Of a stretch of DNA of 64,000 nt, positions 46,959 to 51,993 are shown piece by piece. Each line of letters opens with the position of its first letter. Position 1 is the stretch's first letter. Both the position numbers and the translations under genes were made by a program. This DNA is from Escherichia coli (GTDB lineage Bacteria; Pseudomonadota; Gammaproteobacteria; Enterobacterales; Enterobacteriaceae), in the NCBI RefSeq assembly GCF_003334315.1, contig NZ_QOWR01000016.1; one strand, given 5' to 3'. Under the pieces are notes generated by a model, which was given only the letters and a program-made list of their open reading frames with translations, searched no databases and had not been told where the DNA came from.

Positions 46959-47035
<77 letters not shown>

Positions 47036-47157
47036 CTTTCCCTTAGAGTCCTTTTTCAAATATACTGTGAAGACTTCGGCCTTCGTAGTGGGATTTGAAA
47101 AAATCCTTCTGGAAAGTGCTCCAGACCGCAGTTGCGGTTATAGGGTTCAGTTATATA

Positions 47158-47183
47158 AAGCCCCGATTTATCGGGGTTTTTTG
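47158..47183 (+). terminator. intrinsic terminator downstream of metY (before rimP-nusA-infB)
   Basis: agccccga ttta tcgggg stem followed by ttttttg. Confidence 0.65.
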
Positions 47184-47241
47184 TTATCTGACTACAGAAT
47201 AACTGGGCTTTAGGCCCTTTTTTTATGTCTTGGGGGTGGGC

Positions 47242-49233: not shown

Positions 49234-51906
49234 ATGACAGATGTAACGATTAAAACGCTGGCCGCAGAGCGACAGACCTCCGTGGAACGCCTGGTACAGC
49301 AATTTGCTGATGCAGGTATCCGGAAGTCTGCTGACGACTCTGTGTCTGCACAAGAGAAACAGACTTTGATTGACCACCTGAATCAGAAAAATTCAGGCCC
49401 GGACAAATTGACGCTGCAACGTAAAACACGCAGCACCCTTAACATTCCTGGTACCGGTGGAAAAAGCAAATCGGTACAAATCGAAGTCCGCAAGAAACGC
49501 ACCTTTGTGAAACGCGATCCGCAAGAGGCTGAACGCCTTGCAGCGGAAGAGCAAGCGCAGCGTGAAGCGGAAGAGCAAGCCCGTCGTGAGGCAGAAGAAT
49601 CGGCTAAACGCGAGGCGCAACAAAAAGCTGAACGTGAGGCCGCAGAACAAGCTAAGCGTGAAGCTGCTGAACAAGCGAAACGTGAAGCTGCGGAAAAAGA
49701 CAAAGTGAGCAATCAACAAGACGATATGACTAAAAACGCCCAGGCTGAAAAAGCCCGCCGTGAGCAGGAAGCTGCAGAGCTCAAGCGTAAAGCTGAAGAA
49801 GAAGCGCGTCGTAAACTCGAAGAAGAAGCACGTCGCGTTGCTGAAGAAGCACGTCGTATGGCGGAAGAAAACAAATGGACTGATAACGCGGAACCGACTG
49901 AAGATTCCAGCGATTATCACGTCACTACTTCTCAACATGCTCGCCAGGCAGAAGACGAAAGCGATCGTGAAGTCGAAGGCGGCCGTGGCCGTGGTCGTAA
50001 CGCGAAAGCAGCGCGTCCGAAGAAAGGCAACAAACACGCTGAATCAAAAGCTGATCGTGAAGAAGCACGCGCAGCAGTACGTGGCGGTAAAGGCGGAAAA
50101 CGTAAAGGTTCTTCGCTGCAGCAAGGCTTCCAGAAGCCTGCTCAGGCCGTTAACCGTGACGTTGTGATCGGCGAAACTATCACCGTTGGCGAACTGGCGA
50201 ACAAGATGGCGGTTAAAGGCTCTCAGGTCATCAAAGCGATGATGAAACTGGGCGCAATGGCAACCATCAACCAGGTTATCGATCAGGAAACCGCACAGCT
50301 GGTTGCTGAAGAGATGGGCCATAAAGTTATCCTGCGTCGTGAAAACGAGCTGGAAGAGGCGGTAATGAGCGACCGTGACACGGGTGCTGCGGCTGAACCG
50401 CGCGCGCCGGTTGTGACCATCATGGGTCACGTTGACCACGGTAAAACCTCTCTGCTGGACTACATTCGTTCAACGAAAGTGGCCTCTGGCGAAGCGGGCG
50501 GCATTACCCAGCACATTGGTGCATACCACGTTGAAACTGAAAACGGCATGATCACCTTCCTGGACACCCCGGGGCACGCCGCGTTTACTTCAATGCGTGC
50601 TCGTGGTGCGCAGGCAACGGACATCGTAGTCCTGGTTGTTGCTGCCGACGACGGTGTGATGCCGCAGACCATCGAAGCAATCCAGCACGCGAAAGCGGCG
50701 CAGGTACCGGTGGTGGTTGCAGTGAACAAGATCGATAAACCAGAAGCTGATCCGGATCGCGTTAAGAACGAACTCTCCCAGTACGGCATCCTGCCGGAAG
50801 AGTGGGGCGGTGAAAGCCAGTTCGTACACGTATCTGCGAAAGCGGGTACCGGTATCGATGAACTGCTGGACGCTATCCTGCTGCAGGCGGAAGTTCTGGA
50901 GCTGAAAGCGGTACGTAAAGGTATGGCGAGCGGTGCGGTTATCGAATCCTTCCTCGATAAAGGTCGTGGTCCGGTTGCTACCGTTCTGGTACGTGAAGGT
51001 ACTCTGCACAAGGGCGATATCGTTCTGTGTGGCTTCGAATACGGTCGTGTTCGTGCGATGCGTAACGAACTGGGTCAGGAAGTGCTGGAAGCGGGTCCGT
51101 CCATTCCGGTGGAAATCCTCGGCCTGTCCGGCGTACCGGCTGCGGGTGATGAAGTTACCGTTGTACGTGACGAGAAGAAAGCGCGTGAAGTTGCACTCTA
51201 TCGTCAGGGTAAATTCCGCGAAGTTAAACTGGCGCGTCAGCAGAAATCTAAACTCGAGAACATGTTCGCCAACATGACCGAAGGCGAAGTTCACGAAGTG
51301 AATATCGTCCTGAAGGCAGACGTACAGGGTTCTGTCGAAGCGATCTCCGACTCCTTGCTGAAACTGTCTACTGACGAAGTTAAAGTGAAGATCATCGGTT
51401 CTGGCGTAGGTGGTATCACCGAAACCGACGCCACCCTGGCTGCGGCGTCCAACGCCATCCTGGTTGGCTTTAACGTACGTGCTGATGCCTCTGCACGTAA
51501 AGTGATTGAAGCGGAAAGCCTGGATCTGCGTTACTACTCCGTCATCTATAACCTGATTGACGAAGTGAAAGCGGCGATGAGCGGTATGCTGTCTCCGGAA
51601 CTGAAACAGCAGATTATCGGTCTGGCGGAAGTTCGTGACGTGTTCAAATCGCCGAAATTTGGTGCCATCGCAGGCTGTATGGTTACCGAAGGTGTGGTTA
51701 AACGTCACAACCCGATCCGCGTTCTGCGTGACAACGTGGTTATCTACGAAGGCGAGCTGGAGTCCCTGCGCCGCTTCAAAGATGACGTTAACGAAGTCCG
51801 TAACGGTATGGAATGTGGTATCGGCGTTAAGAACTACAACGACGTCCGCACTGGCGATGTGATCGAAGTATTCGAAATCATCGAGATCCAACGTACCATT
51901 GCTTAA
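49234..51906 (+). CDS. infB: translation initiation factor IF-2
   Basis: 890-aa ORF; G-domain motifs [18 protein letters not shown]; AGGAAGGA SD; in-frame internal starts GTG 49705 and ATG 49726. Confidence 0.97.
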
Positions 51907-51923
51907 GGTTTTTAGGGTTCCAT

Positions 51924-51993
51924 GCGGGATAAGGCGTTTACGCTGCATCCGGCATGGATTGCCTGATGTGACGCTGGCGCGTCTTATCAGGTC
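51924..51993. repeat. REP/BIME pair between infB and rbfA
   Basis: gcgggataaggcgtttacgctgcatccggca (51924-51954) and gcctgatgtgacgctggcgcgtcttatcaggtc (51961-51993), REP palindromes in opposite orientation. Confidence 0.55.

Follow-up and report, generated by a model that had tools for sequence, protein, structure and literature searches.

The window, a 64,000-nt stretch of Escherichia coli DNA, carries infB, the gene for translation initiation factor IF2, with the two known internal start codons of the isoforms IF2-2 and IF2-3, repeat tracts in the N-terminal part of the protein, rare in-frame changes of repeat number and a constraint on repeat length. We put the probability of this reading as a whole at about 95%. 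The internal starts and the isoforms are already known biology; what is new is minor, namely the rare length alleles.

The infB coding sequence runs from 49234 to 51906 on the plus strand, stop codon included, and its translation in the ORF list gives a protein of 890 amino acids; full-length IF2-1 (alpha) starts on the same strand at ATG 49234. The gene is 100% identical to infB of K-12-type genomes across 967 nt, is 100% identical to the annotated infB that encodes protein WP_000133044.1, and as a query has matches in 5,426/5,426 complete E. coli genomes. As judged by comparison of the sequences, the infB in the window is the reference allele itself, with no difference from E. coli K-12. The TIGR00487 equivalog model for IF-2 matches residues 306–889 with 987.9 bits (cut-off 424.4), and this score, together with the K-12-type identity, bears out the assignment to infB made in the first-pass annotation. 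The Pfam architecture is the IF2 pattern (IF2_N, IF2_assoc, GTP_EFTU, EF-G_D2, IF-2 and the C-terminal barrel, with matches at residues 1–50, 56–94, 314–364, 393–549, 565–644, 665–779 and 810–877), and residues 95–313 lie outside any domain found by the Pfam search of the protein. From the order of the ORFs in the window and the annotation of the identical K-12-type locus, the operon is metY-rimP-nusA-infB-rbfA-truB-rpsO-pnp, and an Rfam search of the window found the rimP leader, a tRNA and the S15 leader. At the N terminus, Pfam places the compact N1 sub-domain (IF2_N, residues 1–50) and the IF2_assoc β-hairpin (residues 56–94) at 49234..49515 on the plus strand (residues 1–94). This part, which is present in IF2-1 only, is modeled by AF2 with pLDDT of 82–92, PDB entry 1ND9 covers residues 2–50 of it, and NusA binding has been reported for it (PMC12297416).

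Both internal starts are in frame with ATG 49234 on the plus strand. The GTG at 49705..49707 (49234 + 3 × 157 = 49705) is codon 158 and the start of IF2-2 (beta), and the ATG at 49726..49728 (49234 + 3 × 164 = 49726) is codon 165 and the start of IF2-3 (beta-prime/gamma), a spacing of 21 nt. These are the codons hit by the published mutations g474c (gug→guc) and t494c (aug→acg), which abolish IF2-2 and IF2-3 (PMC3334882), the published nucleotides 474 and 494 being 49707 and 49727 of the window. The same codons are named as the internal infB starts "GUG158 and AUG165" in an N-terminomics study that lists infB among the genes whose N-terminal peptides support two or three starts in one frame (PMC13245402), and a Ribo-RET preprint reports peaks of initiating, retapamulin-arrested ribosomes at the known infB internal site in E. 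coli K-12 and B. The claim that GTG 49705 and ATG 49726 are established isoform starts is thus upheld by published mutagenesis, Ribo-RET and N-terminomics. A single infB mRNA would be read from three in-frame starts (AUG1, GUG158 and AUG165), with IF2-1 of 890, IF2-2 of 733 and IF2-3 of 726 amino acids as the expected products.

The surroundings of these codons carry a mark of their own. In an alignment of 81 sequences (the window and 80 fetched loci from Enterobacteriaceae species), codon 158 is GTG in 81/81 and codon 165 is ATG in 75/81. Synonymous diversity across codons 151–161 (GAAGCTGCGGAAAAAGACAAAGTGAGCAATCAA; 49684..49716, plus strand), which synonymous conservation and predicted accessibility delimit as the internal translation initiation region, is 0.034 against a mean of 0.295, the minimum among all 11-codon windows of codons 1–250. 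Codons 153, 154, 155, 157, 158, 159 and 161 each use one codon only in the sequences with the majority residue. Because codon 158 is GTG throughout the set and the synonymous sites on either side of it are all but fixed, a pattern that protein coding alone does not explain, the alignment argues that the start region is under selection beyond protein coding. The region is A-rich, with a Shine-Dalgarno-like GGA 10 nt 5′ of the GTG; this element and its 10-nt spacing make a weak signal upstream of GTG158. The mRNA around the internal starts is predicted to be unstructured, with a mean unpaired probability of 0.61 and 0.65 near the two starts against 0.46 overall (the 92nd and 97th percentiles of the first 1 kb of infB). 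Rfam models gave no RNA element within 49234–51906, no σ70-like promoter was predicted inside infB, and terminator-like matches were at chance level (four against 3.3 expected). An RNA element, a promoter or an antisense gene was accordingly rejected as an explanation of the region, where the Rfam and promoter searches were empty, and the antisense ORFs at 49383–49712 and 49393–50037 were set aside as lacking support.

The internal starts lie between two repeat tracts on the plus strand, both defined by Tandem Repeats Finder and by shuffles. Tract 1 (49519..49699) consists of about seven imperfect 24-nt (8-aa) units of the form E-E/A-Q/K-A-x-R-E-A, in period-24 arrays at 49542–49598 and 49585–49699, and tract 2 (49786..49869) of 24/21-nt units (KAEEEARR / KLEEEARR / VAEEARR / MAEE), in arrays of period 24/21. 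A repeat search recovered eight in-register copies at 24-nt spacing, 60–72% identical to the reference copy over 57 nt. The lag-24 nucleotide match of tract 1 is 0.698, against 0.378 ± 0.038 in codon shuffles (z = 8.3; 0/5000 shuffles reach 0.698), and tract 2 stands out from its codon shuffles with z = 3.8 at lag 24 and z = 3.3 at lag 21. The repeats are imperfect, with units about 60–85% identical and longest exact direct repeats of 15 nt (lag 24, at 49542) and 14 nt (lag 21, at 49822). The period-24 arrays and the shuffle statistics confirm the repeated DNA units of the first-pass annotation, and both of the near-tandem peptides that it quoted are found at residues 106–154; its coordinates were right except that tract 1 begins at 49519, about 20 nt 5′ of the 49540 given there. 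The two tracts encode E/A/R/K/Q-rich units of eight or seven residues that flank the internal starts. Tract 1 lies 5′ of these starts and is therefore present in IF2-1 only, and tract 2 lies 3′ of them and is therefore present in all three isoforms.

Length differences between strains were counted in 5,426 complete E. coli genomes with 256 junction-specific probes (10,096 nt), which gave 0 matches on the wild-type sequence and of which 247/256 were recovered on simulated alleles; the low-complexity filter removed nine probes, in the GAAGAAGAAG stretch. The resulting count is a minimum, as these nine are missing and the probes are based on K-12, cover in-frame changes only and need at least 4–5 nt of shared sequence. 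The probes match 32 genomes, and every match lies inside infB. Two of the matches (H91 and H92) are false positives of wild-type length, in which a synonymous SNP probably seeds the probe, and a third (H121; Nissle 1917, NZ_CP007799.1) is a partial nusA′-infB′ pseudogene copy in an odd old assembly; H106 and H108 are one strain deposited twice. In-frame gains and losses of units, from −32 to +16 amino acids, are present in at least 29 of the 5,426 genomes (∼0.5%), with at least 13 distinct junctions and 4–15 nt shared between the units at the junctions. The suggestion that repeat slippage or recombination makes the length polymorphic between strains, for which a comparison of infB repeat number had been proposed and was run here, therefore proved true, and the polymorphism rare. 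Neither an absence of initiation peaks at the internal sites nor an invariant tract was found: the Ribo-RET peaks are published, and the tract varies.

We fetched and translated 16 of these loci, and the remaining alleles are inferred from 100% probe matches. Among the translated loci, tract 1 alleles of +8, −8, +16 and −32 amino acids were found; tract 2 alleles are +7 and −7 amino acids (VAEEARR). Strains with such alleles are BS74R-D (+8), OkiPb01695 (+16), M15 (+16, by two events), N68 (−32), N18-04097 (−8), AR_0149 (−7) and CMZE046 (+7). The protein with three copies of EQAKREAA (WP_000133053.1) is reached by three different DNA junctions, and the allele has therefore arisen recurrently, and a duplication of EEQAQREA is found in an isolate from a Swiss human and in one from a bovine. 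The 48-nt internal start region is intact in 16/16 of the fetched alleles, and PGAP calls intact infB coding sequences of 882, 883, 897, 898 and 906 amino acids. About 99% of strains have the canonical tract length, and between genera tract 1 is 64 amino acids long in most and 72 in a group of Phytobacter, Siccibacter and Mangrovibacter. Replication slippage or unequal recombination at short homologies may occasionally add or remove whole units, since the units are similar but non-identical at the DNA level. Given that ∼99% of strains and most genera share one length, and that the protein is otherwise almost invariant, tract length is probably under stabilizing selection. A literature search for earlier accounts of strains that differ in infB repeat length, or of indels in the repeats during evolution experiments, found none; it brought up an IS10 element inserted between infB and rbfA, a K717E substitution and generic mentions.

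Other explanations were weighed for the short isoforms and for the length variants. The short forms might be proteolytic fragments of full-length IF2, or products of an internal transcript of their own, with the GTG and ATG as ordinary Val and Met codons, and the weakness of the Shine-Dalgarno-like element, a GGA 10 nt from the GTG, would fit such an origin. However, point mutations in precisely GTG158 and ATG165 abolish the short forms (PMC3334882), the Ribo-RET preprint has peaks at the internal site, N-terminal peptides place infB among the multi-start genes (PMC13245402), the Val codon is GTG in all of the aligned sequences with its synonymous neighbors frozen, and a promoter-like site for an internal transcript is absent inside infB. 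This origin has already been refuted by the cited experiments, and the likelihood that we leave to it is negligible. It is also very unlikely that natural strains show practically no variation in the tract and that the length variants are assembly or sequencing artifacts. The rarity of the variants (about 0.5%), the pseudogene copy in the odd Nissle 1917 assembly and the two SNP-generated probe matches would agree with artifacts, and the infB N-terminal region of 10 clinical isolates was reportedly fully conserved in a 1997 study. However, the indels measure 21–96 nt, well within single reads and unlike homopolymer-type errors, identical alleles turn up in complete genomes that have no laboratory, host or country in common, the three junctions behind WP_000133053.1 differ at the DNA level, and intact coding sequences are annotated by PGAP at the variant lengths.

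The tract could also be a contingency (phase- or size-variable) locus, a hypermutable repeat kept by selection for frequent adaptive length variants of IF2-1, which we hold to be highly improbable. Recurrent, independent gains and losses of units at several junctions, the preservation of the frame and of the internal starts in the variants, and the condition-dependent roles of the N-terminal part (cold, DNA repair and NusA binding) would all suit such a locus, and the likeness to contingency loci and VNTRs lies in a coding tandem repeat whose copy number differs between strains, probably via short-homology slippage. However, classical contingency loci have long perfect repeats, and in place of long near-perfect units infB has imperfect ones (60–72% over 57 nt, ∼60–85% between units, and an exact repeat of at most 15 nt). 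Frequent differences in copy number were likewise not found, with variants in 29/5,426 genomes (∼0.5%, a lower bound), the canonical length in about 99% of the genomes and an equal tract length in most Enterobacteriaceae genera. All changes are in frame, and units whose length is divisible by 3 make on/off switching impossible. The preferred reading is that of a repeat tract with rare unit changes and constrained length.

The AF2 model suggests how the tracts and the starts might be arranged in the protein. In this single model (mean pLDDT 74.7, pTM 0.27), one helix spans residues 96–160 (tract 1; pLDDT about 82–90) and another residues 167–216, including tract 2, with a pLDDT of about 76–90 for the two together and a low-confidence break at residues 160–164. 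The internal starts are thus predicted to lie in a short non-helical hinge between two long helices, and IF2-2 and IF2-3 would therefore lack the N1 domain, the β-hairpin and helix 1 and keep helix 2. The repeat region is 27% E, 24% A, 14% R, 10% K and 10% Q (E+R+K 51%), and opposite charges are paired at i/i+4 at 38/116 positions as a raw count. The charged composition, the 7–8-residue units and the two long isolated helices of the prediction resemble charged, ER/K-type single α-helix spacers. Unlike designed ER/K helices, the tract has more Ala and Gln, and the literature regards the IF2 repeat region as intrinsically disordered for the most part, although partly helical; a literature search for IF2 as a single α-helix protein found nothing specific. 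Going by the AF2 model and the composition, helix 1 may be a spacer that keeps the N1 domain, which binds NusA, at a distance from the part of IF2-1 that binds the ribosome; for the portion specific to IF2-1, the literature describes NusA binding and cold-induced condensation. We think it rather doubtful that the tract 1 units form a stiff charged helix, present in IF2-1 only, that sets the reach from N1 (NusA) to the ribosome-bound body, with the rare alleles non-neutral and tuning function. If this were true, the natural alleles (−32, −8, +8 and +16 amino acids), in which each unit changes the reach by about 1.2 nm, would tune the coupling of transcription to translation, cold-induced condensation of IF2 or DNA repair, and the rare alleles would be ready-made natural mutants to test the recently proposed roles of the IF2 N terminus.

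The closest known system is the tandem translation of E. coli K-12 infB itself (AUG1, GUG158 and AUG165), with the same sequence, codon numbers, operon and mutated nucleotides. In clpB and mrcB, too, a single ORF yields the full-length protein and one shortened at the N terminus, the latter from an internal start seen by Ribo-RET. Unlike these genes, infB has two close internal starts 21 nt apart, whose predicted place is the hinge that separates the helices encoded by the two repeat tracts, and its start region shows synonymous-site conservation throughout the family. As infB was among the earliest examples of internal translation initiation to be described in bacteria, its re-identification adds nothing to IF2 isoform biology. 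Across the Enterobacteriaceae, synonymous-site conservation clearly marks the internal start region. For E. coli, the direct count indicates a repeat tract that is mutable yet held at one length, and infB lengths of 858–906 amino acids are real alleles and no frameshift errors, which calls for caution in annotation. The strains with IF2-1-specific alleles (−32 to +16 amino acids) may serve as natural variants for work on NusA bridging, cold condensates and replication restart.

The infB gene lies on the plus strand at 49234..51906 and translates to the 890 residues of translation initiation factor IF2. The 967 nt at its 5' end are 100% identical to K-12-type E. coli infB, and the 5' query found a match in 5,426/5,426 complete E. 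coli genomes, with at least 99% identity in 5,301 and a more divergent 5' region (95-99% identity) in ∼125-128; in the one divergent allele read, from strain 1532MA, 8 of 987 nt differ, each of them a third codon position, and the encoded protein has the K-12 accession. Against the NCBIfam IF-2 equivalog the window's protein reaches 987.9 bits (cut-off 424.4), and it has the Pfam architecture typical of IF2: IF2_N (1-50), IF2_assoc (56-94), a second IF2_N (314-364), GTP_EFTU (393-549), EF-G_D2 (565-644), IF-2 (665-779) and GTP_EFTU_D2 (810-877). An identical genome is annotated with the gene order argG/tRNA-Met (metY)-rimP-nusA-infB-rbfA-truB-rpsO-pnp, within which Rfam places the metY tRNA (46959-47032, +), the rimP leader (47124-47224, +), the S15 leader (53506-53620, +) and the antisense SraG sRNA between rpsO and pnp (53850-54021, -). 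The infB-rbfA spacer matches naRNA4, a nucleoid-associated RNA family (51923-51993, +; 68.1 bits, gathering score 59.5), and is also the published site of an IS10 insertion in a heat-evolved strain. The infB tandem translation encoded in the window is the reference case, rather than a relative of it, and is already known.

The repeat peptides quoted in the first-pass annotation are present in the infB translation, and the repeated DNA units it described were borne out by tandem-repeat calls and a codon-shuffle test. Tandem Repeats Finder called a 24-nt period at 49542-49699 and a 24/21-nt array at 49786-49869; a repeat search placed eight in-register copies at 24-nt spacing, the first at 49519, so that the upstream tract (tract 1) spans 49519-49699 and the downstream one (tract 2) 49786-49869. 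The periodicity is far above chance, with a lag-24 match in tract 1 of 0.698, where codon shuffles gave 0.378 ± 0.038 (z = 8.3, reached in 0/5000), and z = 3.8 and 3.3 at lags 24 and 21 in tract 2. The units are imperfect, the longest exact repeat being 15 nt. At 49647-49694, two EQAKREAA units stand side by side in E. coli, whereas in most other genera the second of the pair reads D/E-KAKREAA; the E. coli pair differs at four synonymous sites, and the likeness is therefore at the protein level.

No Pfam domain covers residues 95-313, and residues 96-215 are composed largely of Glu (27%), Ala (24%), Arg (14%), Gln (10%) and Lys (10%). An AlphaFold2 model built from a 32-sequence alignment (mean pLDDT 74.7) predicts the compact N-terminal sub-domain N1, a β-hairpin (58-92) and two helices, 96-160 (pLDDT ∼82-90) and 167-216 (pLDDT ∼76-85), separated by a low-confidence break at 160-164. 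From their positions the predicted helices thus correspond to tracts 1 and 2, which would put the internal starts in the hinge between them; of these four elements, IF2-2 and IF2-3 would thus retain helix 2 and lack the other three.

Both internal starts, GTG 49705 and ATG 49726, are in frame as codons 158 (49234 + 471) and 165 (49234 + 492). Their earlier identification as the known sites for shorter IF2 isoforms holds, because the infB nucleotides whose published mutation (g474c and t494c) abolishes IF2-2 and IF2-3 (PMC3334882) correspond to 49707 and 49727 and fall inside the two codons. PMC13245402 likewise gives GUG158 and AUG165 as the internal starts and counts infB among the genes for which N-terminal peptides support two or three in-frame start sites. 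In a Ribo-RET preprint, initiating ribosomes form well-defined peaks at the known internal site of infB, and the initiation-site profiling suggested by the first-pass annotation has therefore already been published, with a positive outcome. Inside infB, no σ70-like promoter was predicted and Rfam found no RNA family. A further in-frame ATG, codon 209 (49858-49860), lies within tract 2 (CGTCGTATGGCGGAAGAA); Met-209 is invariant in the 32-sequence alignment, predicted accessibility there is moderate (0.51), and this ATG has no published report as a start.

We compared the window with infB loci from 80 Enterobacteriaceae species (81 sequences). At the position of codon 158, Val is encoded by GTG in 81/81; codon 165 is ATG in 75/81, the remaining six loci (three Mangrovibacter, two Trabulsiella and one Shimwellia) having CAA, AAA or GTA instead. 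As ATG165 is replaced in these loci while GTG158 stays constant, IF2-3 appears, from sequence, to be dispensable in some genera. At positions 153, 154, 155, 157, 158, 159 and 161, all sequences with the majority residue share one codon, and the synonymous diversity of codons 151-161 (0.034 versus a mean of 0.295) is the lowest of all 11-codon windows across codons 1-250. By local folding prediction, few parts of the first infB kilobase are less paired than the internal start stretch (92nd and 97th percentiles), and 5,298/5,426 E. coli genomes share an identical 71-nt internal start region.

A query with the wild-type tract had by chance revealed two expanded alleles, in BS74R-D (+24 nt, infB of 898 aa) and OkiPb01695 (+48 nt, 906 aa). 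For a census we used 256 short probes, each crossing a junction that an in-frame deletion or duplication within 49480-49920 would create; lags were ≤150 nt, a minimum of 4-5 nt had to be shared at the junction, and no 28-mer of the probes is present in the wild-type gene. Locally, these gave 0 matches to wild type and recovered 247/256 simulated alleles; in the database they matched 32/5,426 genomes, in every case within infB, and both positive controls were among these. Alleles were assigned by mapping matches to probes and reading 16 fetched loci. Two matched genomes (H91 and H92) proved to be of wild-type length, the probe seed there probably stemming from a synonymous SNP, and a match in the 2014 Nissle 1917 assembly was set aside as a second, partial nusA'-infB' pseudogene copy (NZ_CP007799.1, 5112166-5113402); its repeat tract differs from every other allele seen, and the copy is probably an assembly artefact.

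There remained 29 records (28 strains, ∼0.5%), a lower bound given the K-12-based probes, the restriction to in-frame lags, the shared sequence required and the loss of nine probes in the GAAGAAGAAG stretch to low-complexity filtering. Length polymorphism between strains, as earlier proposed, is thus real, if at low frequency, and the literature searched held no earlier report of infB length alleles. In tract 1, EQAKREAA is present in three copies instead of two (+8 aa, 7 records), in one (-8 aa, 6) or in four (+16 aa, 1); EEQAQREA is duplicated alone (+8 aa, 4) or with an extra EQAKREAA (+16 aa, 2); the first unit is lost (-8 aa, 2), REAQQKAE is duplicated (+8 aa, 1), and one record has a 96-nt deletion (-32 aa). 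In tract 2, VAEEARR is lost (-7 aa, 4 records from 3 strains) or duplicated (+7 aa, 1). Three different DNA junctions lead to the protein with three EQAKREAA copies (WP_000133053.1), and the events therefore recur independently. The 48-nt internal start region is unchanged in 16/16 fetched alleles.

Although the tract can gain or lose whole units, a single length prevails. Between genera, tract 1 has 64 aa in most and 72 aa, one extra unit, in the Phytobacter/Siccibacter/Mangrovibacter group. Such changeability might be that of a contingency locus, a reading that fits less well since those loci have long perfect repeats and frequent variation, whereas the infB tract has imperfect units and ∼0.5% length variants. 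Stabilizing selection on tract length fits better. In 10 clinical isolates studied in 1997, the IF2 N-terminal region was reportedly invariant, which agrees with the 99% canonical frequency.

The IF2-1-specific part is reported to bind NusA via N1 and the next β-strands, on a flexible linker (PMC12297416), and the wider N-terminal region has been tied to phase separation induced by cold, to fitness in the cold and to DNA-damage recovery (PMC3334882). We infer that helix 1 acts as a spacer. It is conceivable, if rather unlikely, that the number of units in this helix, specific to IF2-1, tunes the bridging of NusA and ribosome or condensation in the cold, in which case the natural length alleles would be functional variants.
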